Source of the DNA: Promethearchaeota archaeon
GTDB taxonomy: Archaea; Asgardarchaeota; Thorarchaeia; Thorarchaeales; Thorarchaeaceae
Length of the DNA stretch: 64,000 nt
Assembly (NCBI GenBank): GCA_048939765.1
Contig: JBHLPF010000001.1
Coordinates: 46,073-110,072, forward strand
Direction of reading: 5' to 3'
Part shown: piece after piece, positions 4,706 to 62,270 of the stretch
Position numbering within the stretch: position 1 is the first letter of the stretch
Layout of the letters: every line of letters begins with the position of its first letter
Made by a program: the position numbers and the translations under genes
The notes under the pieces: model-generated
Database searches by the model: none
What the model saw: only the letters and a program-made list of their open reading frames with translations
What the model was told of the DNA's origin: nothing

Positions 4706-6001
4706 TCACATGTGAATTAATGCGGCATCTGGGACCTCTTGAAAGACTTCACGGGCGGCTTTTCCGACCTTTCTGCGATTGCGGTCAAATGTATACACAC
4801 GGATGACATCGAGGTATACCTTCATCATCTCTGCAATGTTTGAGTAGTCTGAGAGATTATGAGAGACCTTCTTGCTATCAATCATCTCGAAGATTCGTAT
4901 CTCCATGGGATTGAGCTGATGTGGATTATAGGGAACTGATGGAAGAGTAGGCACATCTACAATCACTTCATCGGCTGGTACATCTGCTAATGCTGCAATC
5001 TCATCCTCAATGCTCTCTCTGACTCTGCGCTTCGTAAGAATTTTGGATACAAAGCGATCTTCGGTGTGCAGGACTTTCTCGAAGACGGACTTGTACAGAA
5101 TACGCGAATCTAACATGTTTACCATTCTGACCGCTTCTTTGGCATCGTCAGACTCAGTGGGGTTAATCTTTCTGATTCTTGATATCAATGACATATCATC
5201 TAGCTTCAGAAACTCTTCAGGAGTTGAAAAGCTCGTCAATCCTAAGACACTGTCTGCAGCATTCATGAGCTTGACCAACATTACCTCAACACTGCGAACT
5301 GTCTTGTGATAATAGACATTGAGAAACATCTCATACCGTGCAACAAGGAATGCTTCCAGAGCGCCTCTGGCTGCAATATCGAACTCTGGTATGAGATCAT
5401 CAGAAACTTCTAGGCTGTTGATGAGTCGATGAATGTCAACAAGACCATAGTTTACCCCGCAATAGAATGAGTCTCTAATCAGATAGTCCATCTTATCAGC
5501 ATCAACTTGACCTGCAACGATGGAACTAACAACTGAATCAGTCTTGGTTTCACGTCTTCCGCGAACTAGGTTGGCTATTCGGTCTTTAGATATTCCACCA
5601 TCCTCAAGCAGGTCTCCAACCTCGCTCTCACGGATGATCCACTCAGTCACGTCTTCGTGGTTCCATCCCCTTCGTTCAATTAGTGACTCCTCAAATACAT
5701 GGCTGAATGGACCATGACCTATGTCATGTAAGAGGCCTGAGATACGTACTTCTTGAAGGGTCTTCTCACCAAGACTCATTGGGCCGAGTAGCCTCCTTCC
5801 TGTCAGACCTGCTAGATACATTGCACCAATGCAGTGCCCGAAGCGGGTATGTTCAGCGGCAGGGTATACGAAATGACCGCCAGAGAGCTGTTTTATCCGT
5901 CTTAGTCGTTGATAGGGCCTTGAGTTAATAACCTTGGACTCAAGTTCTGTGAGCCCGATGAAACCATGGATAGGATCGTTCAGCTCCATAATGAAATCCA
6001 T
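4706..6001 (-). CDS. HD-domain phosphohydrolase (dGTPase/SAMHD1-like dNTP triphosphohydrolase family)
   Basis: 431 aa. HD motif region HTRFGHCIGAMYLAG...LLHDIGHGPFSH...D. Length and layout resemble archaeal dGTP triphosphohydrolase-like proteins. Confidence 0.7.
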   Translation of the reverse strand: MDFIMELNDPIHGFIGLTELESKVINSRPYQRLRRIKQLSGGHFVYPAAEHTRFGHCIGAMYLAGLTGRRLLGPMSLGEKTLQEVRISGLLHDIGHGPFSHVFEESLIERRGWNHEDVTEWIIRESEVGDLLEDGGISKDRIANLVRGRRETKTDSVVSSIVAGQVDADKMDYLIRDSFYCGVNYGLVDIHRLINSLEVSDDLIPEFDIAARGALEAFLVARYEMFLNVYYHKTVRSVEVMLVKLMNAADSVLGLTSFSTPEEFLKLDDMSLISRIRKINPTESDDAKEAVRMVNMLDSRILYKSVFEKVLHTEDRFVSKILTKRRVRESIEDEIAALADVPADEVIVDVPTLPSVPYNPHQLNPMEIRIFEMIDSKKVSHNLSDYSNIAEMMKVYLDVIRVYTFDRNRRKVGKAAREVFQEVPDAALIHM

Positions 6002-10318: not shown

Positions 10319-10321
10319 AAA

Positions 10322-10430
10322 TGGTGGGCCGGGGGCGACTTGAACGCCCGATCTCTTGCATTCTGTGACTTGAGGCCCTAGGTCCTTAGTCGCCCCAAGC
10401 AAGAATCATACCAAGCTAGACTACCGACCC
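10322..10430 (-). tRNA. tRNA-Pro (anticodon GGG) with a roughly 32-nt canonical intron; CCA is encoded
   Basis: Reverse complement reads GGGTCGG-TA-GTCTAGCTTGGTATGAT-T-CTTGC-TTGGGG[intron CGACTAAGGACCTAGGGCCTCAAGTCACAGAA]T-GCAAG-AGATC-GGGCG-TTCAAGT-CGCCC-CCGGCCC-A-CCA. The acceptor stem pairs 7/7 with one G-U. The anticodon stem CTTGC/GCAAG is perfect. The T-loop is GTTCAAGTC. Confidence 0.7.
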
Positions 10431-10575
10431 TTGCAGTCGTTGTCGTAAACCGATGTCAAGATAAACGTTATTGCAAAGTCTATTAGAACACGTGTTCTAA
10501 TAGACTCGAATACATTAGGTCTGAGGTCTACACTTATCTACGGGAATTACACCAGAGAGAGCCTGGGATGCGATA

Positions 10576-16917: not shown

Positions 16918-17874
16918 ATGGATTTAGACCTCTGGACAGAAAAATACCGTCCCCCCACACTCGGGGGAATTATTGGACAGGAATCGATTATTGAGAGTCT
17001 AACCAAATTCGTGGAAAACAGGAATGTACCACATTGTCTGTTCAGCGGACCTCCAGGTACAAGCAAGACCACCGCTGCAATGGCGATGGCAAGAGATCTC
17101 TTTGACGACACTTTTGATCGTAACTTCATGGAACTAAATGCAAGTGATGAGAGAGGCATTGATGTCGTCAGGAATCAGATAAAGAACTTCGCCCGGACCA
17201 TGCCGGCGGGAGATGCTCCCTTCAAGATTCTGGTCCTAGATGAGGCGGACCATCTCACTGCTGATGCTCAACATGCATTAAGACGGACGATGGAATCGTA
17301 TGCAGGCTCATGCAGAATGATATTGATATGTAACTATTCGAGCAGAATAATTCCACCAATTCAATCTAGATGTGCGATGTTCAGATTTGCCCGATTAAGT
17401 GATGACTCGATGGCTGAGAGAATCAAGTTCATTGCTAAAAAGGAGAAAGTTTCTGTCAATGTAAGTGGGACCAAAGCAATACTCTATCTCGCAGAGGGAG
17501 ACATGCGGGCTGCTATCAACCTTCTTCAGGCATCTGCATCTGCAGGAGAAAAAGTGGATGATACAATAGTCTACTCGATAGCTGGAAGAGCAAACCCCAA
17601 AGCGATTAAGGAGATGCTAGACTCCGCTAATGTGAACTATGAGGACTCTCTGGAGAAACTTAGAGTACTCATCTATCAGCAAGGAGTGTCGCCAGTAGAT
17701 TTGGCAAGGCAACTGCATAGAGAAGTGCTAAAGATGGATATGGCTGAGAATCAAAAGATGTTGATTCTTGAGAGGGCTGCAGAAGTTGAATTTCGAATAG
17801 GAGAAGGAGCAAGTGGAGAGGTCCAACTGAGTGCACTATTGGCGCATATAGGATTGGAACGGGGTAAATCATGA
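16918..17874 (+). CDS. rfcS: Replication factor C small subunit
   Basis: 318 aa. RFC box II-III, Walker A GPPGTSKTT, DEAD-type Walker B (LVLDEADHLT) and SRC motif (SRCAMFRF). Confidence 0.95.
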   Translation: MDLDLWTEKYRPPTLGGIIGQESIIESLTKFVENRNVPHCLFSGPPGTSKTTAAMAMARDLFDDTFDRNFMELNASDERGIDVVRNQIKNFARTMPAGDAPFKILVLDEADHLTADAQHALRRTMESYAGSCRMILICNYSSRIIPPIQSRCAMFRFARLSDDSMAERIKFIAKKEKVSVNVSGTKAILYLAEGDMRAAINLLQASASAGEKVDDTIVYSIAGRANPKAIKEMLDSANVNYEDSLEKLRVLIYQQGVSPVDLARQLHREVLKMDMAENQKMLILERAAEVEFRIGEGASGEVQLSALLAHIGLERGKS

Positions 17875-19088
17875 AGAGCAAAAACCTGCCTTGGCCAGAA
17901 CTCCACCGTCCCACGAGTCTTAAGCAGATGGCTGGTAATATCGATGCAATAGGAGAACTGAGAAGGTGGATTCAGTCTTGGATTGATGGGACCCCAGGCA
18001 AGAGAGCTGCATTGTTGATTGGCCCTCCTGGTGTGGGAAAGACAGCTTCTGTTGGCGCACTATCTCATGACTACGACCTAGAACTGGTAGAGTTCAATTC
18101 GAGCGATAAACGAAACAAGGGAAGTATAGAGAACCAGGTGTGGAAAGCGGCGACGCAACAGACACTGGATGGTAGACTTCGTCTTCTCCTCTTAGACGAG
18201 GTAGATGGACTCTCCGGGACAAGCGACCGAGGAGGGGTGGGTGCAATTCTGAAAATCGTCGAAGACACAGTACATCCCATTATAATGACTGCAAATGATC
18301 CAAACAGCCCACGCCTGAAGGATTTGTTTAAGGTCTGCAAGGTGTTCATGTTCGACTCACTTGAAGCAAGTGACATGGTAGCTGTCATCAGAAAGATTGC
18401 AGCGGCACATGATTCTGTGTTCTCTGATGATGTGCTAGAAGGAATTGTTGATAGGGCTGGAGGCGACCTTCGAGCTGCAATAGCAGATCTTGAAACACTC
18501 TCTGTAAGCGGACGCACATCTGATATGGGACTGCCATCACGCGATGTGCGTCGTGAAGTCAGGGAAACCTTTGGACGACTGTTTATGACTACAGACCCAG
18601 AAACAGCCAAACGGGTCGTTTCAGAATTGGACATGGATTACAATCAACTGCTTCTATGGCTTGAAGAGAATGTACATCTTCATCTTACAGCTCCGGAAGA
18701 ACTGGACCAGGGTTTTGAATTTCTCTCGCTTGCTGATTTATCAATTGGACGAATTTGGAGGCGGCAAAACTGGAAATTGCTGGCCTATGTGTATGACTTT
18801 CTAGCAATTGGAATTTCCATGAGCAGAAAGGTGACACCATATAGGAAAGTTGAGTATTCTCAGCCAGCTTGGCCAATGTTGATTTTCCGGGGGAATAGAA
18901 AATACGACAAGGAAGCAGACCTTTTCCGAAAACTCTCTGAAATCGCCTCAATTTCCACAAGGAGAACGGCACCAGCTTATAGGAATGCAATAATGGAGAT
19001 AGTCAGAAGAAATCCTCGATTGAAAGGAGTCTTCTCGGAGTGGCTAGAAGTCAAGAAGAGCTTCTTTGATGACAGAAGGCATTGCTGA
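17871..19088 (+). CDS. rfcL: Replication factor C large subunit
   Basis: 405 aa. Walker A GPPGVGKTA and Walker B LLLDEVDGL. Overlaps the rfcS stop by 4 nt. Confidence 0.9.
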   Translation: MKSKNLPWPELHRPTSLKQMAGNIDAIGELRRWIQSWIDGTPGKRAALLIGPPGVGKTASVGALSHDYDLELVEFNSSDKRNKGSIENQVWKAATQQTLDGRLRLLLLDEVDGLSGTSDRGGVGAILKIVEDTVHPIIMTANDPNSPRLKDLFKVCKVFMFDSLEASDMVAVIRKIAAAHDSVFSDDVLEGIVDRAGGDLRAAIADLETLSVSGRTSDMGLPSRDVRREVRETFGRLFMTTDPETAKRVVSELDMDYNQLLLWLEENVHLHLTAPEELDQGFEFLSLADLSIGRIWRRQNWKLLAYVYDFLAIGISMSRKVTPYRKVEYSQPAWPMLIFRGNRKYDKEADLFRKLSEIASISTRRTAPAYRNAIMEIVRRNPRLKGVFSEWLEVKKSFFDDRRHC

Positions 19089-19887
19089 GTGCACTTAGTG
19101 TACGTCTGGATCTCTTGAGATAATTCAAATGAACTCTCAACTGCTTTCGGACTCTTGAAATTGCATGCTTACTTGTGGTCATGCGAATTGGTATTGCTGT
19201 TTCCATGAGAACCAGGCATTCTGATGGAGCAGGCTCAATACCTCCTGGAATTGAGCTATGACCATTGAGATAATCTGAGAATGTCTGAATGTCCATGGCG
19301 CCAGTTCCAATCTGTTCAAGCAGCGATACTGTCTTTCTGATTAGCTTCCAAAGGAAGTTAGTGCCAAAGATGTCTAGAATAATGCCGTCATCCGACTTCA
19401 GAAGGCTTGCATTGATAATCGTGGCCCTAGTTGGTCTATCACCATTTGGTTTCGAAAGATGAGAAAAGTCGCGGGTTCCAGATAATAGCTGTATAGCAGT
19501 TCTCATCGTTTGTAGTTTCACATCGGGTGGATTCGTATCGAAATAGTATCTATAATGTTTCATAAGCACGTCATATCGAGGATTGAAATTGGGTGGAGCT
19601 ATGGCATAGGCCCATAATGCAATATCAGGTGGAAGGTATCTGTTTACTCTGTCTATGTCAAGCTTCTTTTCCCCGCTTATCATTACGATTTGACCTATAC
19701 TATGCACTCCTCGATCAGTACGGCCTGAGAATTGTACCGTCTGAGTAGTGTAGCTGGTTTCGCTCTTGGAGTCCCAATGATTCAACGCACTGATGAGTTC
19801 ACCCTGTATAGTTTTGAGATTCGGCTGAAATTGGGACCCATGATAGGCATCCCCAAGATAGAAGAGACGTGCGATATAGGAGTGCAA
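19051..19887 (-). CDS. truA: tRNA pseudouridine(38-40) synthase TruA/Pus1-like
   Basis: 278 aa. Catalytic RTDRGVHS motif (TruA family RTD.GVH) and conserved Tyr-rich N-terminus. Confidence 0.8.
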   Translation of the reverse strand: MHSYIARLFYLGDAYHGSQFQPNLKTIQGELISALNHWDSKSETSYTTQTVQFSGRTDRGVHSIGQIVMISGEKKLDIDRVNRYLPPDIALWAYAIAPPNFNPRYDVLMKHYRYYFDTNPPDVKLQTMRTAIQLLSGTRDFSHLSKPNGDRPTRATIINASLLKSDDGIILDIFGTNFLWKLIRKTVSLLEQIGTGAMDIQTFSDYLNGHSSIPGGIEPAPSECLVLMETAIPIRMTTSKHAISRVRKQLRVHLNYLKRSRRTLSALSNAFCHQRSSS

Positions 19888-19903
19888 TTAGCAGACCTCT
19901 TAG

Positions 19904-20197
19904 TCATGACTGCCAAAGTCCGAATAGGTTCCGTAACGCTCGTGCCCGGTGGTCCTCTATCCGATAGCGGTAGATTTTGATTCTCCCAAACATCTTTTCC
20001 TCGACTAGTCCTGATTTGATAAGTACCTCAAGATGCGATTTGGTCGAGCTATGATTCAAGGAAACTCTCCGGCAAAGTTCGGATATATTCAGCTCACTGG
20101 AAGTGGCTAGTTCTTTTATTATCTTGATTCTCCCTCTCGAAGAGAATAGTTCCTCTATTGGCACTCGAAATCTGTCATCAGTATCAGTAGAAATCAT
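19904..20197 (-). CDS. ArsR-type winged-helix transcriptional regulator
   Basis: 97 aa. An HTH-like segment ELNISELCRRVSLNHSSTKSHLEVLIKSGLVEE resembles the ArsR/SmtB recognition helix and wing. Confidence 0.5.
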   Translation of the reverse strand: MISTDTDDRFRVPIEELFSSRGRIKIIKELATSSELNISELCRRVSLNHSSTKSHLEVLIKSGLVEEKMFGRIKIYRYRIEDHRARALRNLFGLWQS

Positions 20198-20208
20198 GAA
20201 ACCCCCCT

Positions 20209-21402
20209 TCAGGTGAGTAAGTCGAGTAGATGTTGTTCCAACATATCAGCTGGTACTTCAGAGAGACCTATCAAGGTTGTCTGACCTCTCTGGCCAGCAC
20301 CAGAACGTTTTGTGTCCAAAAGCCCATGCGCATTTAGATCCTGTACCCATTCCCAGATTTGAGTGTGTGCCCTTGGATCTTCGCCGTACTCCTCGCATAT
20401 TGGACGGTACATCTCTTCGAGCTCACCCATTGTGATATATGCGCCTCGATTCATCCTGAGCTGTCTTGCAGCTGCCAGAAGAAGAAGCATATTCTGTCGA
20501 GGGAGAGTTGCGAACACCTCCTTCCTCAACTCGGGATGTATGTCTGCCTTGGCCTTACGGGCAAAATCAGGAATCACCTTTCGGGAGCCTGTACTATCAG
20601 CCTGCTTCCCTGCGCGCCACAGGAGTTCGATTGCATAACGGGCGTCCCCCCATTCTGAGGCAATGTCGCAGATAATCTGCAGTGTTTCATCCATAACTGC
20701 ATCCTTCTCGAATGCCATGTCTACTCGCTCCCTTAGAATATCATATAGTGCATCAGCTGCATATTGGTCAAAACGAAGTATGTTTCTTTGAAGTGTGCTC
20801 AATGTGCTTTGATCCAAGATACTCTCATCAAGGGGTATCTTTCTCCCCACTCCGATTACAGACAGACGCTGAGGAGCATTCAACCGGTCATCCATCAGCC
20901 TAGTCAAATCATAGAGAATGTCAGCGCCTCGTTGTCTAATGAAATAGTCGAGCTCATCAAGTATCAGTAGAAGGTATCTGTCTTCTTCATCAAGTACTTC
21001 GACAACCATCTGAAGAATTTCTTCAGGTGAATGGCCTCGTCGAGGAAACCTTGGTTTAAACTCCCTCAATATCCGCAGATACACAAGATAGGTGCTCTTG
21101 CTCACTCTACAGTTTATGTGCAGTTTGTGCAGTTGAATGCCACGTCGCGTAGCGGCCTTAACCATTTGATCCGCAAAACGCTTAGTCACAGCTGTCTTTC
21201 CAGTGCCTACTGGGCCCTCGATAATGAACTTCTGACTCGCGCGACCGGGCGAAGCAATCAGTGTCTTGAAACTCTGGGCCAGCTTCCTCAACTCAGGCTC
21301 TCTATGCGGGAGAGTTTCTGGAACATAGTCGATGGATAGCAATTGCTCCGACTTGAATACACTCCGTCGACTCAGTTCGTCTTCTACATAGTCATGCGTC
21401 AT
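20209..21402 (-). CDS. cdc6: Orc1/Cdc6 replication initiator
   Basis: 397 aa. AAA+ Walker A GPVGTGKTAV, Walker B LILDELD and a C-terminal winged-helix region. Confidence 0.92.
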   Translation of the reverse strand: MTHDYVEDELSRRSVFKSEQLLSIDYVPETLPHREPELRKLAQSFKTLIASPGRASQKFIIEGPVGTGKTAVTKRFADQMVKAATRRGIQLHKLHINCRVSKSTYLVYLRILREFKPRFPRRGHSPEEILQMVVEVLDEEDRYLLLILDELDYFIRQRGADILYDLTRLMDDRLNAPQRLSVIGVGRKIPLDESILDQSTLSTLQRNILRFDQYAADALYDILRERVDMAFEKDAVMDETLQIICDIASEWGDARYAIELLWRAGKQADSTGSRKVIPDFARKAKADIHPELRKEVFATLPRQNMLLLLAAARQLRMNRGAYITMGELEEMYRPICEEYGEDPRAHTQIWEWVQDLNAHGLLDTKRSGAGQRGQTTLIGLSEVPADMLEQHLLDLLT

Positions 21403-21624: not shown

Positions 21625-21728
21625 TGCGGCCGCCGGGATTGTCTCAACACACAGCAGTCGTATGTTGATTCGAACCCGGGTTGGAGGCTTGGGAGGCCTC
21701 CGTCCTAACCAAGCTAGACTACGGCCGC
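21625..21728 (-). tRNA. tRNA-Gly (anticodon CCC) with a roughly 30-nt intron at a non-canonical position in the T-loop/T-stem junction
   Basis: Reverse complement reads GCGGCCG-TA-GTCT-AGCTTGGTTA-GGAC-G-GAGGC-CTCCCAA-GCCTC-CAAC-CCGGG-TTCGAAT[CAACATACGACTGCTGTGTGTTGAGACAAT]CCCGG-CGGCCGC-A. Acceptor, D, anticodon and T stems all pair perfectly only when the 30-nt insert is removed. Confidence 0.75.
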
Positions 21729-21834
21729 TGAAGAGGCCATCCTTATGGTATATGATAAAAGACTATCGGCAAAATGCTCCAAGTCAACGCTTATCAAGGA
21801 CTTGTGGGACAGCCGCTCCTGAGGATTATCCTTC

Positions 21835-28461: not shown

Positions 28462-28569
28462 GCTCCGGTAGATGATTCATGAAATCCATGATACAACCGT
28501 ATGTAGTCCGGCCCAGCATGAGGGACTCTCGATCCCTCGACCCGGGTTCGAATCCCGGCCGGAGCACCA
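28462..28569 (+). tRNA. tRNA-Glu (anticodon CUC) with a roughly 30-nt insertion near the D-arm 5' side (non-canonical intron position); CCA is encoded
   Basis: The 3' two-thirds is canonical: ...AGGGA-CTCTCGA-TCCCT-CGAC-CCGGG-TTCGAAT-CCCGG-CCGGAGC-A-CCA. The 5' acceptor GCTCCGG is at 28462. It is separated from the D-arm sequence (ATGTAGTCCGGCCCAGCAT) by GATGATTCATGAAATCCATGATACAACCGT. The exact splice boundaries are ambiguous. Confidence 0.6.
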
Positions 28570-30761: not shown

Positions 30762-33700
30762 GTGTCCAGCCATGAATTAAGCAAGGGAGACCGATTTAGA
30801 GTACCATCTAGGAAGGATCTTCCAGGGCTGTGGAAATGGATTGAGCTTGGATGGCTCACTAGCATTTCTATCTTGACTCTTTACTTCATAGTAGTCTACT
30901 TGCTCCCGTTACTGGGACTAATCACCCCAGTTTCAATCCCATCGAAACTGTTCATTGAAGTCATAATCTCCATAGGTCCGGTGTTGATGGGTGTGCTAGT
31001 GGCTCGCAGAAAGCTAGCCTTCGAGCAATCATTGACTGCAGTTTTGGATGATGATTTAGTGGCAATGAACATTGGAAACCATATTGTGGCAACATGCTGC
31101 CTTGATATCATGTCTGCACCCGGCTCAGTCCATATTTCTCGGAATGATCGACCGGAATACGCTACTGCTTTCCTTTTAGCACTTCGCGCAGGAATGAATG
31201 AGAAGGTCAGTATGGCATATGAGGTGGGTGTATGGAGAGGTGAGGCTTTTCTGCGGATTTTCATAACTGGAATAGGCAAGAGTAAGGAAGAGGTTGGGAA
31301 TATTCTTAGACATGAGGCGACTCGAGCAGAGGCTATTTTGATATCCTCCCTTAACAATGTGGAACTCCATCAGCTTAGAGGAGAAAGCCTCAGGGATGCG
31401 GTGTCAGGCATCCTATCTCTTGACTTGGAAGGTAACTCATCCAGAGAGCTGCATACCGTATTGTTGCTGATTAATGGAGAGCCGCGCGTCGCGCCCAGTC
31501 TGGAAAGCTCTCAGATTGGAACTTTCCTCTCTGTTTCACTTCGGCAAGGATACGATGTAAGTCTCACATGTGTCTTTTCGAAAGCTAAACCTGGTCGTGA
31601 ACAGAGAAAACTGGAAGGGCAATGGAAAACAATTCGGGAGAAAGAGAAACGGAACGAAGACTCCTTGGCAGACCATTCAGAGAAGAAGAAGCTGTTACGC
31701 GATTATGAGGAGATACAGGAGAATACTGGCTGGTTTGATTCCTCAGTTTCTCTTGCGGTAAGAACAGACGATTCTGAACATCTTTCAAGCATTCAGGAGG
31801 CGGTGTGCGGTGTTGTTCACTCCATATGGGGAGGAGATGGCAAAGTCAAGTTGAAACCTAAAGCTATAGGAAAGAATGTAGCTTACAGGCTTCTTCTTAG
31901 AAGACATATTACATCGCAAAGGACTCACGTGAGTAGATTGGCTGCTTTCTTGAATACACCGGTCCAGCAGTTGCCTGTCATTGCTGCATCCCCTGTGCCC
32001 GCCTTCACAATTCCATCAAGAAAGTTGGTGAACAACGAGTTCGTCATTGGAAAGGCTGTTTTTGGCGGACGGCGAATAAATGATGTCGGTTTGAAACCCG
32101 AATGGCTCCGGGAGCATGTAGCTGTACTTGGAGCAACAGGCACAGGAAAGACTACTCTTGTGAAACACCTTATTGCCGAACTAAGTAAGAAGTCGAGTGT
32201 TCCATGGTGGATCTTTGATGTGAAAGGATCTGAGTACCAAGAATTGGTGAACCTTTGTGACGATGATATCCTGGTATTGAAACCTGGAGTAGATCCATCG
32301 TTCGTAATTGATTTCATGGATCCAGAGACTGATTCTGGCGAGAGACATGCACACACTACGTTTGCAATATTGAAAGAACTCCTAAACGAGAGAGGTGTTT
32401 CTTCAGAACTCTCGCCTGCAATGGAAAAGCTTCTTCGTGAAGCGGTGTTAGAGGTTGCGCATGCATCAAGTAATGACAACTCGATTCAAGCATTGATTCG
32501 TGAGATATCAGATCTTGCAGGAAAGGATCGGACCGCTATCATGACGAGAGATGCACTCCTTAATCGTCTGGAGATTCTATCTAGAGAACCCCTCGGGACC
32601 ATTCTGAGTGGTGGTCGAAACGCAGTAAGGATCTCAAATCTTATGGATAAGAGGGTGATTCTTGATCTGCAGTATGTTGCTAGGACGGGTGGAATGGATG
32701 CGGCACGTTTGTTATACAATCTCATAGCTAAACGCATCTTTGACTATGCATTACACAGAGGGATAAAGCCAGGTCTTCATCATTTAGTAGTCCTCGAAGA
32801 AGCCAGCAATCTTGTACCTGAAAGCTATACGAGGCATACAGCTGCAGATGTCACCACAGGAGAGTCCATGGTTATGCTCCAGCGGGCAACAGGACAAGGT
32901 GTAGTTGTAATATCAACTCGACCGAATGTTTCTTCGAATATTCTGGCAAACACAGCCACGAAAATTGCCTTTCGACTTCCGTATGATAGTCCCATTGGTG
33001 CCAGATTCATGTCCCTTGATGATGAACAAGAACGGTATCTCAAGACACTGAAGCGTGGAAGAGCGCTGATTGTCTTGCCAGGGACAGAACCGTTCGAGAT
33101 AGCAACTCGACCATTTGAAATGGCCAGCATTCTTGAGAGACCGCCTTTGGAGCCAAGTATTCATGATGAAAGAGAGATTCCAGAGTCTAAAGATGCATCT
33201 ATAGAACATGATACAACAATTCAATCTGGAAGCTTTGACTCTTCTTCAAAGCCAATGGGAGCAGTGTATGACCGATTGGGAGAATTGGGGTCGCATATTG
33301 TTGCGTTTCTTGCCTCTCGGAATATGGCAACCCAAGCTGAAATGGAAGAGATTTTGACAGCAATCGATCCAAGAATGGAAAGTAGCGACATAAACGAGGT
33401 TATTCGTGACTTGGTTTCCTTGGGGACCATTGAGAGAGAAGCTTTACCAATTGTGCCAGGCGACTTCATTTTTACTTTGCCGGGAAGAGGACTTGATGCA
33501 GTAAGCATGATGATAACTGACTATATCATCGAGAAGCTTGGTTTGCATGATGTCACATGGGAACGAAATCTAGATGACAGGCCTGATATCGTTCTTGACG
33601 ACAGGGCGATATTGATACTTCCTCAACATCTCAAAGCATCATCAATGAAAACAACAGTGAACAAAATTCGGAATTATATGAATAATCTGGGTAATGATTT

Positions 33701-39287: not shown

Positions 39288-40316
39288 ATGAGTCCTTTGA
39301 GTGTTACACCTGTTGAAGGTTATTTCATAATGACCGATGATGATCTTCTGTTCGAAGTGAAAGGAATCGTCCATCCCAAGGACAGAGTCATTGCGTACCT
39401 GCGCTACATCCAGGATAAGCATGGAGATCGCCAGTCAAGAAGTGGGACTCGGTTCAGAAAGGTGTACAACTTGAAGGAACGAGATGAGATTCTTCACAGA
39501 GAGTATCCCCAGTATCTCTGGCTCGATGAAAACCGTGGACGGGAATTTCAGGCGGTTCCGAGAAACCGTGTTTCATTCGTTCTGAGTCCGATAGATGGAC
39601 TGCGACAGCTTCTCGATATGGGAATACATATCACTGCTTTGGAGAAAGCGTCCCGAGCTCTTGCTGAACTCCTTGTGGATAAAGCTGGAATAGAATGGTC
39701 AGACATTGGACTTACAGGGTCTCAACTTGTAGGCCTTTCCAGCGAGAAGTCTGACATCGACCTTGTTGTCTACGGATCAAAGTCCGCAAGAAGGATTCAT
39801 AGTGTGCTTAGGGACGAATTTGACTCGTTGCCTGGAATAGAACGATACCATGGAATTCGGTTGAAAAGGCATGTGAAGTTTAGATGGGACAAACATGATC
39901 AATGGGAGATGTCACTACAGAAGATTGAATCTCAAAAAGTACTCCAAGGATTGTTTAGGTCATATGACTTCTTCATCAGGATGGTCAAGCTTCCTAGCGA
40001 GGTAGAATACAAGTATGAAGACCTAATCATCAGGAATAAGGGCATCCAGACAATCGAGTGTTTAGTCATAGATGACACTGATTCAATATTCACTCCATGC
40101 ACCTACACTGTAGAATCCGATATGACCAACCTGCGGAGATTGGTTAGTTTTCGAGGGAGATTCACAGAGCATGTCTTTGCGGGTGAATCTGTTGAGGCAC
40201 GCGGAAGAATGGAAACTGTGACCAATGTGAACACGAACGAGTCTTTCACTCAGTTGGTCCTCGGTGAAGATCCATTGGACTATTTGATACCAATTCAAGC
40301 CATCCAAAAGAATTGA
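39288..40316 (+). CDS. Pol-beta-superfamily nucleotidyltransferase domain protein, function unknown
   Basis: 342 aa. GS-x9-SDIDLVVYG (hG[GS]...D.[DE]) nucleotidyltransferase motif around residue 150, preceded by an uncharacterised N-terminal domain. Confidence 0.5.
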   Translation: MSPLSVTPVEGYFIMTDDDLLFEVKGIVHPKDRVIAYLRYIQDKHGDRQSRSGTRFRKVYNLKERDEILHREYPQYLWLDENRGREFQAVPRNRVSFVLSPIDGLRQLLDMGIHITALEKASRALAELLVDKAGIEWSDIGLTGSQLVGLSSEKSDIDLVVYGSKSARRIHSVLRDEFDSLPGIERYHGIRLKRHVKFRWDKHDQWEMSLQKIESQKVLQGLFRSYDFFIRMVKLPSEVEYKYEDLIIRNKGIQTIECLVIDDTDSIFTPCTYTVESDMTNLRRLVSFRGRFTEHVFAGESVEARGRMETVTNVNTNESFTQLVLGEDPLDYLIPIQAIQKN

Positions 40317-40461
40317 CATATTCACCTCATTAACAGGTTTTCACAGTGAGTATCTGTGAATGGCGCCTTTTTTGTGAATCATTCTCATGAAAGAGCCTTT
40401 AAATCGCCTTAATCAGCGGAAGGACAGCCCATAAACCCTCTTAAGCCTGTGAATGAAGCCA

Positions 40462-40482
40462 CCCCTTGGTTTCCAGTGGAAC
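40462..40482 (-). promoter_or_regulatory. Origin recognition box (ORB) copy, inverted orientation: CCCCTTGGTTTCCAGTGGAAC
   Basis: Its reverse complement GTTCCACTGGAAACCAAGGGG is a near-identical 21-mer to the 44665 element. Confidence 0.55.
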
Positions 40483-40787
40483 AGGACAAGAAGAGATATG
40501 AAATACTAATCGACTCATTCACAAAGCACATATTCTAGTGAACAGCAGAAGGTTTGAACATTTCCCTTCTTTTCCAAAAATAAGGTTTCATAACGCTTAT
40601 TTTGTCTAAAATTGACCGCACAAGCTGCCAGCACATCGATATCAACGTGGACGTGTTCTGAATAGGTATAGGCGCATTATGTTGCCGTTATCTCCGTATT
40701 GCTAATTCACATACTCACACTTATTTGGTCACAGTCAGTTATCGGGTGTGAATATTGAAATGGGTATGAGTTACTCGGATACAGGTC

Positions 40788-41426
40788 TTGGTGGAATACT
40801 TGAAGTCTGAAGATCGTACAAACTATGTCTATCGGTTCACCTACAACTCGGGACCAGGACTTCGAGAAGTGTTCCAGTGCAAGTATGTCAGACCCGATGA
40901 GGCGTTAACTAGGTTTCAGAGAATTCTGTCCTTGACAAATGAGCCCTTTGATTTCAAGATAGTAGTAATTGACGAAGCAAAAAGGGAAGAATCTAGCTTT
41001 GAAGTTGAGGGTGGTAGCGTAAAGGAAATGATTGAGAAGTTCCGAGTCTTCTTGGAAGCAAGCACAGGCATCCTGTTTGTCCCAGAACAAGAGAGTGTTG
41101 AAGTAGAGTTTGAAGAGATCAGTTTCGAGTCAATGAGTAGCTTTGAGAAAATGCACATAGTGATCTACGCGTCATTCAAACATGGCAAGTTCTCCTCACT
41201 TGATGTTGCCGAGATATTTGAAGCAACATTCAATGAAGACTTGCCAAAGAGTACTGCATCTACATACTTAGCCAGAATGTGGAATGATGGTAAGGGACAC
41301 CTGGAACGCTATGGCAATCGTTCTGGCTACACATATAGGCTCAAGACAGAAATGGCAGAGGTTCAAAAGGAAACTGAGAGAGCCGAAGATATCCTTGCAT
41401 CGATTCAGATACGCGTTGGTAAATAG
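40788..41426 (+). CDS. Hypothetical protein with a C-terminal winged-helix-like segment
   Basis: 212 aa. The C-terminal region SLDVAEIFEATFNEDLPKSTASTYLARMWNDGKGHLERYGNRSGYTYRL resembles a wHTH. Sits directly downstream of an ORB-containing intergenic region. Confidence 0.4.
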   Translation: MVEYLKSEDRTNYVYRFTYNSGPGLREVFQCKYVRPDEALTRFQRILSLTNEPFDFKIVVIDEAKREESSFEVEGGSVKEMIEKFRVFLEASTGILFVPEQESVEVEFEEISFESMSSFEKMHIVIYASFKHGKFSSLDVAEIFEATFNEDLPKSTASTYLARMWNDGKGHLERYGNRSGYTYRLKTEMAEVQKETERAEDILASIQIRVGK

Positions 41427-44087: not shown

Positions 44088-44319
44088 TCGGGAGCTCCTG
44101 CCTGGCTGCAGACATTGCCGCGTGGAACAATTCCTATGCATTAACCTTTCCATTTCGGACCAATTTTGTATTACTAAGACTGAAAATGTGAACATGTGTT
44201 CCAATTTTATGACATTTTTCCTCTATTTGTATGATTGTCGGCGCGCTCGCGAAACCAATGCTCGACGTGTTTCATTTACTAAGGAGCTCTATGGATATAC
44301 CTACACATGGAAGACAAAG

Positions 44320-44493
44320 ATGGGGATTAGACAGAAAAGAAAGCCAGGTCTTATTGATACATCAGGGGCATTAGCAGTGGCTGACTCTGCAATATTGGTG
44401 CCTGGAGAATATAGATCTCTCTTCGATTCATTGTTCAGATCCTATTCTGACATATTGAAGGCTAGGGTTTTTGAAGTTCTAAGAGAGATTTGA
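44320..44493 (+). CDS. Possible 57-aa small ORF inside the origin-like intergenic region
   Basis: MGIRQKRKPGLIDTSGALAVADSAILVPGEYRSLFDSLFRSYSDILKARVFEVLREI. Its stop is 2 nt before the GAACACGTGTTC palindrome. An AGGAG lies 40 nt upstream. There is no homology evidence and it may be non-coding. Confidence 0.2.
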   Translation: MGIRQKRKPGLIDTSGALAVADSAILVPGEYRSLFDSLFRSYSDILKARVFEVLREI

Positions 44494-44522
44494 TTAGAAC
44501 ACGTGTTCCAATACCCAAGACA

Positions 44523-44543
44523 CCCCTTGATTTCCATTAGAAA
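44523..44543 (-). promoter_or_regulatory. Origin recognition box (ORB), degenerate, inverted orientation (CCCCTTGATTTCCATTAGAAA)
   Basis: G-tract complement CCCC plus TTCCAnnnGAAA dyad. It matches the inverted form of the ORB 120 bp downstream. Confidence 0.5.
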
Positions 44544-44664
44544 TCTTTGAAAGTATCGATACTTATCGAAAAGGGTAAATATAAATACCCGTTTGTGGAG
44601 CTCGCATTCATCTCCATTTTATCATTATTATTCATTCACCGCTCTTGATCCCCCCATTTTATCA

Positions 44665-44686
44665 TTTCCAGTGGAAATGAAGGGGT
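44665..44686 (+). promoter_or_regulatory. Origin recognition box (ORB): TTTCCAGTGGAAATGAAGGGGT
   Basis: Matches the archaeal ORB consensus: TCCAGTGGAAA dyad, short spacer, GGGGT tract. Confidence 0.6.
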
Positions 44687-44862
44687 GTCAGACCATAATA
44701 TCTGGATATAGGGTATATTAATATGTTAGAACACGTGTTCTATGGTATTATGCGTATTACAAAATCAAGGTTTGGGAGCATTTCCAGTACCACAAGGTTG
44801 ATAGACTGATTTACCTCCGGACGGCTTGTGCTTGTCGTTTATGGAGATCGGAGGCTAGGTGA

Positions 44863-62160: not shown

Positions 62161-62270
62161 GGGCCGGTAGTCTAGCCCGGCTATGATGTCTCGCTTACAC
62201 CGAGAAACTGGTTGAGCTTTATGCTCTCCAGATTCGAAGGTCGCTGGTTCAAATCCGGCCCGGCCCACCA
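62161..62270 (+). tRNA. tRNA-Val (anticodon UAC) with a roughly 32-nt insertion between the anticodon stem and T-arm (non-canonical intron position); CCA is encoded
   Basis: GGGCCGG-TA-GTCTAGCCCGGCTATGAT-G-TCTCG-CTTACAC-CGAGA-[AACTGGTTGAGCTTTATGCTCTCCAGATTCGA]-AGGTC-GCTGG-TTCAAAT-CCGGC-CCGGCCC-A-CCA. Acceptor 7/7 and anticodon stem 5/5 perfect. The extra 32 nt cannot be a class II variable arm for Val. Confidence 0.6.

Follow-up and report, generated by a model that had tools for sequence, protein, structure and literature searches.

A candidate ORB-type replication origin of Thor-group Asgard archaea located away from cdc6

Architecture of the locus

The subject of this work is a non-coding stretch of 369 bp (44494-44862) in the genome of a Thor-group Asgard archaeon. 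It was analyzed within a segment of 64 kb (contig JBHLPF010000001.1, assembly GCA_048939765.1), which is called the window throughout and from whose first letter all positions are counted. The stretch is located between two co-directional genes, one for a protein of 94 amino acids (aa) and iorA, and carries a module of two inverted origin recognition boxes (ORBs), the boxes bound by archaeal Orc1/Cdc6 initiators, together with the spacer between them and a palindrome on either outer side (Table 1). An earlier interpretation made from the letters alone, referred to as the sequence-only reading, had put forward that a replication origin with outward-facing ORBs around an AT-rich duplex unwinding element (DUE) is present here and that it does not adjoin the initiator gene cdc6. 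The sequences quoted in it were all found where it had placed them, and a candidate ORB/DUE origin away from cdc6 is supported by sequence as well as by comparison.

Table 1. Positions of the features of the window that are discussed in the text
Feature	Position	Strand	Sequence and remarks
Palindrome copy	10486-10497		LigT-like gene (and possibly a tRNA) on one side, histone-deacetylase-family gene on the other
Replication-gene cluster	16918-21402		RFC small subunit (16918-17874), RFC large subunit (17871-19088), ArsR-type helix-turn-helix (HTH) protein (19904-20197), cdc6
Orc1/Cdc6 gene	20209-21402	-	Pfam Cdc6_lid and Cdc6_C; presumed trans-acting binder
Palindrome copy	35404-35415		Amino-acid kinase gene on one side, ribosomal protein S10 gene on the other
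Second conserved non-coding region	40317-40787	.	470 bp, carries ORB-C; conserved in 17 Thor-group sequences
TGTGAAT/ATTCACA heptamers	40355, 40373, 40448, 40517, 40705, 40747		Six copies in the ORB-C region
ORB-C	40458-40482	-	Reverse complement GTTCCACTGGAAACCAAGGGGTGGC; single canonical ORB, 4.0 kb to the left, oriented as ORB-B
Half-palindrome	40649-40659		GGACGTGTTCT; ORB-C region
23-mer	40705-40727		ATTCACATACTCACACTTATTTG; invariant in 15 of 17 aligned sequences, one-base difference in the other two
212-aa gene	40788-41426	+	Directly downstream of the ORB-C region
PAL1	44190-44201	.	GAACATGTGTTC, one mismatch; 8 bp before the ATG of the 94-aa gene, ~95 bp from the start of the LKR-like gene
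94-aa gene	44209-44493	+	Conserved, directly left of the module; function not assigned
PAL2	44494-44511	.	TTAGAACACGTGTTCCAA; left bracket, 7 bp from the outer end of ORB-B (44519)
ORB-B	44519-44543	-	Reverse complement TTTCTAATGGAAATCAAGGGGTGTC; inverted partner of ORB-A, G-tract also outward
Inter-ORB spacer	44544-44664	.	121 bp; proposed DUE and MCM loading zone
14-bp palindrome	44551-44564		AAGTATCGATACTT; in the spacer
Mid-spacer motif	44575-44587	+	GTAAATATAAATA; TATA-box-like, followed by GTTT at 44592-44595; column identity 0.75
Mid-spacer motif	44610-44620	+	ATCTCCATTTT; column identity 0.82 as against 0.36-0.53 in its flanks
AT-rich string, two copies	44614-44626, 44654-44666		CCATTTTATCATT; in the spacer and at its right end
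ORB-A	44665-44689	+	TTTCCAGTGGAAATGAAGGGGTGTC; canonical origin recognition box
PAL3	44726-44742	.	TTAGAACACGTGTTCTA; right bracket, ~36 bp past ORB-A, ~120 bp upstream of iorA
Direct GTATTA repeat	44744-44760	+	GGTATTATGCGTATTAC; beside PAL3; column identity 0.48, partly conserved
Conserved 26-bp block	44781-44806	+	TTTCCAGTACCACAAGGTTGATAGAC; ~60 bp upstream of iorA; column identity 0.73 as against 0.19-0.22 in its flanks

ORB-A consists of the dyad TCCAGTGGAAA and a G-tract that is directed away from the spacer. It deviates from the published archaeal consensus (CTTCCAGTGGAAACGAAAGGGGT) by two bases and a 1-nt gap and is identical to ORB3 of 'Ca. M. intestinalis', a published box of the Methanomassiliicoccales, whose ORB is given as GTTCCAGTGGAAATGA-AGGGGT (Table 2 of PMC4153887). 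The layout that the sequence-only reading had recognized at this site therefore agrees with the pan-archaeal consensus. The degenerate inverted copy that it placed upstream corresponds to ORB-B, which differs from ORB-A at three of 25 positions, shares with it the dyad, the spacer length, the G-tract and the trailing TGTC and likewise fits the pan-archaeal consensus. A loose ORB pattern run over the window retrieved the two boxes, ORB-C and a weaker, overlapping minus-strand match at ORB-A (44652-44675). ORB-A, ORB-B and ORB-C are thus three sites in 64 kb, all of them inside 4.2 kb. The inventory of the sequence-only reading was right about the pair and overlooked ORB-C; its "third weak copy" (TTTCCAGTACCACAAGG at 44781) has neither dyad nor G-tract, is for this reason not regarded as an ORB and belongs to the conserved 26-bp block ahead of iorA.

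An A+T content of 64% sets the spacer 10 points above the window (54%), and the least stable 60-mer of the entire window by nearest-neighbour energy (44527-44586; 99.997th percentile) coincides with its ORB-B side. An AT-rich stretch of low stability between the boxes, as postulated for the DUE, is thereby borne out, with a modest enrichment, and so are the 14-bp palindrome and the repeated AT-rich strings described for the spacer. A motif TATAAAT..GTTT stands between the ORB pair in loci of both the Thor group and the Heimdallarchaeia, the one of the latter being similar to GTAAATATAAATA and the GTTT after it. An RNA gene in the spacer was considered and rejected, as RNAalifold returned no meaningful consensus structure and Rfam at the gathering threshold found solely tRNAs in the window.

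The only cdc6 gene of the window is located 23 kb from the ORB pair. Its product exceeds the cut-off of the ORC1-type equivalog NF001623 of NCBIfam (361.7 bits, cut-off 311 bits), and its closest solved relatives are Pyrobaculum Cdc6 (1FNN), Sulfolobus Orc1-1 (2QBY_A) and Aeropyrum ORC1 (2V1U); Orc1-3 (2QBY_B) is far less similar. Judged by these similarities it is of the Orc1-1 class, the class that binds ORBs. Neither the loose nor a relaxed scan of the window detected an ORB near cdc6; together with the Pfam and NCBIfam assignments this confirms the statement of the sequence-only reading that the initiator gene is remote from the candidate origin and has no ORB beside it. The replication-gene cluster to which cdc6 belongs also includes a pseudouridine synthase gene (Pfam on L001). 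An identical Cdc6 protein is encoded on contigs JBHLMA010000056, JBHLOH010000001 and JBHLOA010000008, and the proteins of the window are 90-99% identical to those of metagenome-assembled genomes (MAGs) labelled Candidatus Thorarchaeota or Hermodarchaeota.

Distribution and conservation of the ORBs and palindromes

The pattern TTCYANTGGAAAYSAAGGGGTG, which covers all three ORBs of the window, was searched in one genome per species for 185,579 prokaryotic species (596 Gb). At least 118 loci were found, as compared with about two chance matches expected by our own estimate, and chance is therefore not a credible explanation for the boxes. Among the matches listed, 116 are in archaeal-titled records that belong to many phyla. 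The remaining two stem from bacterial-labelled MAGs, one of which carries a cdc6 homologue at a distance of 469 bp. These are L022 (QNCD01000150.1), the one with the cdc6 homologue, and L117 (JBBACV010000109.1), which has an outward ORB pair; their labels are Omnitrophota and Acholeplasmataceae, and both contigs are short and have the appearance of misbinned archaeal DNA. A cdc6/orc1 homologue shares the 8-kb block with the match in 50 of the 88 non-Thor loci listed, the median distance being 210 bp, and sites adjoining cdc6 bear this 22-mer pattern in dozens of archaeal lineages besides the Thor group. This linkage and the match to the consensus identify the motif as the canonical cdc6-linked ORB. 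The same pattern gave no match in 2.9 million viral contigs.

Inverted ORB pairs in the other archaeal ORB loci listed face outward in 35 cases and do not in ten, their gaps measure 81-290 bp, and the A+T content of most of their spacers exceeds that of the respective locus by 10-20 points; in Bathyarchaeia, values of up to 73-81% A+T are reached. By the same criteria the pair in the window is outward, has a spacer of 121 bp (123 bp between the shorter scan matches) and an enrichment of 10 points. The layout that the sequence-only reading regarded as standard, outward-facing ORBs around a DUE, is consequently the commonest one among these pairs. Our statements on ORB polarity relative to the spacer are based on this comparison of loci and on PMC12141716.

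All 29 Thor/Hermod loci listed have their match in one of the two gaps known from the window, that from the LKR-like gene to iorA or that separating the genes for a 342-aa and the 212-aa protein, with flanking proteins that are 58-97% identical. For five Thor genomes two loci each are among the matches listed, and both are always found in this region. The possibility, raised by the sequence-only reading against itself, that the boxes are a dispersed repeat does not apply, as all Thor matches listed occupy two gaps of one region. The 29 Thor loci had no cdc6 within their 8-kb blocks. About 20 Thor/Hermod species have the module, both palindromes included, in this syntenic position; in the closed Thor chromosome CP070658.1 it is found near 1.8075 Mb. 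Most of the 19 readable LKR-iorA gaps present the same order of PAL1, small gene, PAL2, ORB on the minus strand, about 140 bp, ORB on the plus strand, PAL3 and iorA. Conservation was quantified as mean pairwise column identity in a MAFFT alignment of 18 Thor-group sequences, 17 of which were scored. It amounts to 0.83 for ORB-A (0.36 in the adjacent spacers), 0.79 for ORB-B, 0.71 for PAL2 and 0.83 for PAL3, and to 0.19-0.53 between the conserved blocks. Such block-wise conservation, interrupted by spacers that drift in sequence and are constant in length, has the appearance of protein-binding DNA.

The palindromes share the core GAACACGTGTTC, which is present in exact form at 44497-44508 and 44729-44740 and at 10486 and 35404, with a one-mismatch copy at 44190. 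All five of these window copies are intergenic. When up to two mismatches are allowed, nine copies are found in the window where 2.2 are expected, a number reached in none of 100 shuffles. A consensus derived from 43 copies extends the core to TTRGAACACGTGTTCYAA, a perfect dyad of 18 bp, which suggests a dimeric binder. The 228 kb of Thor loci contain 39 exact copies, of which the ORB module accounts for 36, and the 629 kb that were covered from other archaeal ORB loci contain none; by this count the palindrome is specific to the Thor group. Beyond the module it occurs in the Thor loci about once per 30-60 kb and is always intergenic. PAL1 is kept in nearly all Thor loci and PAL2 in most of them, and the copy beside the S10 gene is retained at the orthologous spot elsewhere, lying 5066 bp from ORB-C both in the window and in L017. 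The symmetric bracketing of the origin unit described in the sequence-only reading is correct insofar as two exact copies flank the ORB pair, but the motif is dispersed and has a third local copy at 44190.

From this distribution, a dimeric DNA-binding protein most likely uses the palindromes as operators; it would have a regulon, with its sites densest around the candidate origin. At the module this protein would most likely either insulate the origin against transcription of its two neighbours, the 94-aa gene and iorA, or modulate origin use. The palindrome has the form GAAC-N4-GTTC in common with the LexA box of Gram-positive bacteria, and a literature search otherwise gave unrelated primers. 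To our knowledge LexA does not occur in archaea, and the likeness is therefore taken as coincidence.

Neighbouring genes and the second ORB-bearing region

The ORB pair has a companion in the second conserved non-coding region, in which ORB-C is near-invariant among the 17 Thor-group sequences and is most likely an auxiliary site for Orc1. The heptamer TGTGAAT/ATTCACA is present six times in these 470 bp as compared with 16 times in the other 63.5 kb, and is probably the site of another DNA-binding protein. Outside this region, an inverted heptamer pair (30686/30725) is located upstream of a gene that begins at 30762, and one copy (21452) is situated upstream of cdc6.

The 212-aa protein encoded next to the ORB-C region has 304 homologues, all of them unnamed and found solely in Thor-group-labelled records (Thor, Hermod, Sif, Prometh). 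No Pfam or NCBIfam family was assigned to it. An AlphaFold2 model was obtained with a predicted local distance difference test (pLDDT) score of 68, and the best Foldseek matches in the PDB are winged helix-turn-helix regulators (E about 3e-3). Only the C-terminal winged helix is interpretable, and in this model it resembles the domain of PadR, RosR and MecI. As a hypothesis, the protein is a candidate for a factor linked to the ORB modules. The gene for the 342-aa protein, which is weakly nucleotidyltransferase-like, overlaps the start of a class-V aminotransferase gene on the opposite strand by 135 bp (39288-39422), and its true start is probably further downstream than the one listed.

A relative of the 212-aa protein accompanies ORBs in a second Asgard class. 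One match of the scan (L096; the named members of its family are Heimdallarchaeia) has an outward ORB pair with a very AT-rich spacer immediately upstream of a gene (4759-5214) for a 151-aa protein, which shares 33% identity over 76 residues with the winged-helix domain of the 212-aa protein (E 4e-9). Four further Heimdall loci were inspected (L126-L129, winged-helix gene from 5001 or 6001), among them one from the closed genome of Ca. Heimdallarchaeum endolithica. Three of the four have an ORB pair before the winged-helix gene and, at a distance of 1.3-2.3 kb, a single ORB surrounded by a GTGAAY cluster. The closed genome, CP084167.1 with its module near 2.155 Mb, has a degenerate pair, of which just one arm was retrieved by the relaxed scan, and its single ORB is situated about 5.9 kb from that pair. 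The gene cdc6, accompanied by an HTH gene and a DUF6788 gene, is found 1.2-4.5 kb from an ORB module in three of the four. As in the replication-gene cluster of the window, cdc6 of the Heimdallarchaeia is paired with a small HTH gene. The palindrome has no copy at the ORB pair of the Heimdallarchaeia. The winged-helix gene, for which neither Pfam nor NCBIfam has a family, hence stays with the ORB modules and not with cdc6 in both lineages. The synteny makes it likely that a cdc6-linked two-module origin region is older than the split of Thor and Heimdall lineages, and that in Thorarchaeia cdc6 later moved about 20 kb away, with the winged-helix gene staying at the ORB modules.

On the other side of the module, the small gene between PAL1 and PAL2, which begins immediately past its stop codon, modifies the view of the surroundings. 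The 770 bp from the LKR/SDH operon to iorA had been described as a divergent region in the sequence-only reading; they contain the conserved 94-aa gene and do not represent a simple divergent promoter. The gene product is 48-96% identical across the Thor loci in tblastn comparisons, its homologues of 94-99 aa align over their full length and are found in Thor-group-labelled records, and AlphaFold2 predicts for it an alpha/beta fold of ferredoxin-like topology (pLDDT 90.5). Searches yielded no Pfam or NCBIfam family and no informative fold match in the PDB; the Foldseek matches are weak and generically ferredoxin-like (CutA1, PII; TM-score about 0.3). A relation to Cas2, considered from the sequence pattern, is not supported. 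Ahead of iorA, the GGTATTATGCGTATTAC repeat is probably part of the iorA control region and the TTTCCAGTACCACAAGGTTGATAGAC block is probably an iorA promoter or operator.

Two minus-strand segments remote from the module (~10320-10432 and ~21625-21730) look like intron-containing tRNA genes with acceptor- and T-arm-like ends; ARAGORN, and Rfam at the gathering score, made no call at either of them. Rfam reports an intron-bearing tRNA at 62161-62267 and a partial one at 28501-28558.

Interpretation and comparison with known systems

The identity of the boxes with cdc6-adjacent ORBs, their orientation and spacing, the low stability of the spacer, the uniqueness among the matches listed, the conservation in a syntenic block and the presence of an Orc1-1-type gene in the window lead us to propose that the locus serves a Thor-group Asgard archaeon as a chromosomal replication origin and belongs to the classical Orc1-1/ORB (oriC1) type. 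We regard this as likely on the strength of the comparisons described above, and the module would very probably be the origin of Thor-group archaea or one of several. In a mechanism taken from Sulfolobus oriC1 (PMC12141716), one monomer of the Orc1/Cdc6 protein would bind each of ORB-A and ORB-B with fixed polarity. Since the boxes are inverted with their G-tracts outward, the ATP-bound initiators would face each other across the spacer of 121 bp. They would then recruit MCM hexamers onto this segment of low stability, the duplex would open and bidirectional replication would begin. The core of the module is canonical; what is unusual is the distance to cdc6, the lineage-specific flanking palindromes and the companion module of ORB and heptamers.

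Several points weigh against this proposal. Archaeal origins usually adjoin the gene of their initiator (PMC4010727), unlike the situation in the window, and the spacer is just moderately AT-rich. Isolated ORBs that are not part of an origin have been reported from other archaea (PMC4153887), and the uniqueness of the boxes per genome holds among the matches listed. We infer Orc1 binding, MCM loading and firing at the module, and some archaea grow without using their origins. Nucleotide skew points in no clear direction: raw cumulative GC skew over the 64 kb follows gene orientation and has no minimum at 44.5 kb. Strand-corrected GC skew at third codon positions (GC3), calculated for these 64 kb only, amounts on the top strand of positions 22000-64000 to +0.12 in the 22 kb to the left and -0.04 in the 20 kb to the right of the module. 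This polarity is opposite to the bacterial leading-strand rule and, with the module as origin, would mean a C-rich leading strand; the left 22 kb are not uniform (+0.02). In favour of the proposal, gene orientation is weakly divergent from 44.5 kb, with 58% (left) and 64% (right) of coding bases running with the presumed forks.

A rival explanation takes the ORB pair for a region of transcriptional control that depends on Orc1/Cdc6, or for a dormant or relic origin, with replication starting elsewhere or by recombination. Orc1 would still bind, but the site would mainly regulate its neighbours or an internal promoter at the TATA-like motif. The conservation of that motif between the ORBs, the position of the module between co-directional genes with further conserved promoter-like blocks ahead of iorA, the distance of cdc6 and the lack of support for an origin from the strand-corrected skew over 64 kb all agree with this idea. 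Non-initiator paralogues of Orc1 act as regulators in Sulfolobus (PMC9738581), and both dormant origins and origin-independent growth are known in haloarchaea. On the other hand, orientation, spacing and spacer composition are those of working cdc6-linked origins, and the sole cdc6 of the window is of the initiator class Orc1-1. The module is moreover kept across two Asgard classes beside different downstream genes, which fits a gene-independent function better than regulation of iorA. Taken together, we consider a control region or relic origin rather unlikely.

Two further explanations are given far less weight. Were the locus an operator cluster for a palindrome-binding regulator of the LKR/SDH operon, the 94-aa gene and iorAB, one would understand why three palindrome copies, each at a gene start or end, are found within 550 bp and why further intergenic copies accompany the histone-deacetylase-family gene (10486) and the S10 gene (35404). 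The ORBs, which would be incidental, are nevertheless conserved as strongly as the palindromes, fit a pan-archaeal motif that is tied to cdc6 elsewhere and are retained as a pair by Heimdallarchaeia that lack the palindrome, so that we hold this explanation to be very improbable. Hardly any weight at all is given to an origin of an integrated plasmid or virus, or to a small structured RNA. Extra origins have been captured from extrachromosomal elements in other archaea (PMC4010727), but the synteny of the module with housekeeping metabolic genes is stable across the Thor group, the viral contigs are devoid of ORB matches, Rfam reports nothing at the locus, and the consensus fold of the spacer attains just -0.25 and -1.29 kcal/mol on the two strands.

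An extension of the origin proposal, unlikely as it stands and brought forward as speculation, is that Asgard origins are bipartite and have a winged-helix gene, not cdc6, as their partner. The first module would consist of the outward ORB pair around the unwinding element with its conserved TATA-like motif, and this assignment within a bipartite origin is doubtful to the same degree. Equally tentative is the second module, a single ORB in a cluster of GTGAAY heptamers 2-7 kb away. The PadR/MecI-like gene might conceivably belong to this arrangement as the gene kept directly downstream of one module in Thorarchaeia and Heimdallarchaeia. With no greater probability, its product might be origin-specific, for example by binding the heptamers and licensing or restraining firing, the factor of the Thor palindrome being a second one. 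Should the bipartite arrangement hold true, an accessory layer of origin control would for the first time have been described among the archaea most closely related to eukaryotes.

Our literature search found no mapped or dissected replication origin of an Asgard archaeon. Asgard archaea are the closest known archaeal relatives of eukaryotes, whose origins have largely lost sequence definition, and the locus offers a concrete, conserved and testable candidate for the Thor group, comprising two ORBs, a spacer with two motifs, a single gene of Orc1-1 type and palindromes. The rule that an origin is next to cdc6 fails for this class if the candidate is the origin, which matters for origin predictors and for replication rates derived from metagenome coverage. 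Should the accessory elements prove functional, one could learn from them in what way origin control gained extra layers along the lineage towards eukaryotes.

The closest known counterpart is Sulfolobus oriC1, where in the arrangement ORB3-DUE-ORB2 a single Orc1-1 monomer occupies each ORB in a fixed polarity and the spacer of about 130 bp is the site of MCM recruitment (PMC12141716). It resembles the module in its two inverted ORBs around a spacer with a conserved motif in the middle, of which the 121 bp of the window have two. It differs from it in the immediate vicinity of orc1-1, as opposed to 23 kb, and in a spacer that is highly AT-rich, as opposed to one of 64% A+T with a TATA-like mid-spacer motif; flanking palindromes have not been described for it. 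Sulfolobus oriC1 furthermore requires for its function the nucleoid protein UBP, which is sequence-specific and has over 300 intergenic sites with the ucm motif (PMC12141716); the pair of ucm and UBP is the nearest precedent for the palindrome. Like ucm, the palindrome is a short defined motif that occurs at the candidate origin and also between genes elsewhere. For ucm this dispersal is genome-wide; for the palindrome it was observed in the window and the Thor loci covered, at roughly one copy per 30-60 kb outside the module. Unlike ucm, which is positioned midway inside the spacer and bound by a monomer, the palindromes are dyads outside both ORBs (44494-44511 and 44726-44742). They consequently do not qualify as ucm-type elements by position, and the middle of the spacer is occupied by the other conserved motifs, GTAAATATAAATA standing at the position that ucm has in Sulfolobus oriC1.

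Predicted origins of Methanomassiliicoccales, Bathyarchaeia and Methanomicrobiales have the same ORB sequence in outward pairs. Most of these other archaeal ORB sites are about 60-500 bp from orc1/cdc6, in contrast to the 23 kb in the window, and in Methanomassiliicoccales the ORBs often flank the orc1/cdc6 gene itself at a distance of about 1.7 kb from each other. The ORB pairs of Marine Group II (Poseidoniales) enclose a moderately AT-enriched spacer similar to that of the window, and no cdc6 homologue was detected in their blocks. The GAACACGTGTTC palindrome is present in none of those loci.

Two further systems bear on the elements around the ORB pair. At Sulfolobus oriC3, which lacks ORBs, the initiator is WhiP, a winged-helix protein related to Cdt1 (PMC4010727). 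The window is comparable in that a gene neighbouring an ORB module encodes a winged-helix protein and is not cdc6; the 212-aa protein, however, resembles regulators of the PadR/RosR/MecI kind and not Cdt1, and an initiator role for it would be pure hypothesis. At oriC2 of Haloarcula hispanica a downstream ORB cluster acts as a negative regulator (PMC4010727). This cluster and the isolated ORBs of 'Ca. M. intestinalis' are thought to titrate or regulate the initiator, and ORB-C may have a similar role. Unlike them, ORB-C is a single box 4 kb from the pair and is embedded in a cluster of TGTGAAT heptamers, in an arrangement that is conserved across two Asgard classes.

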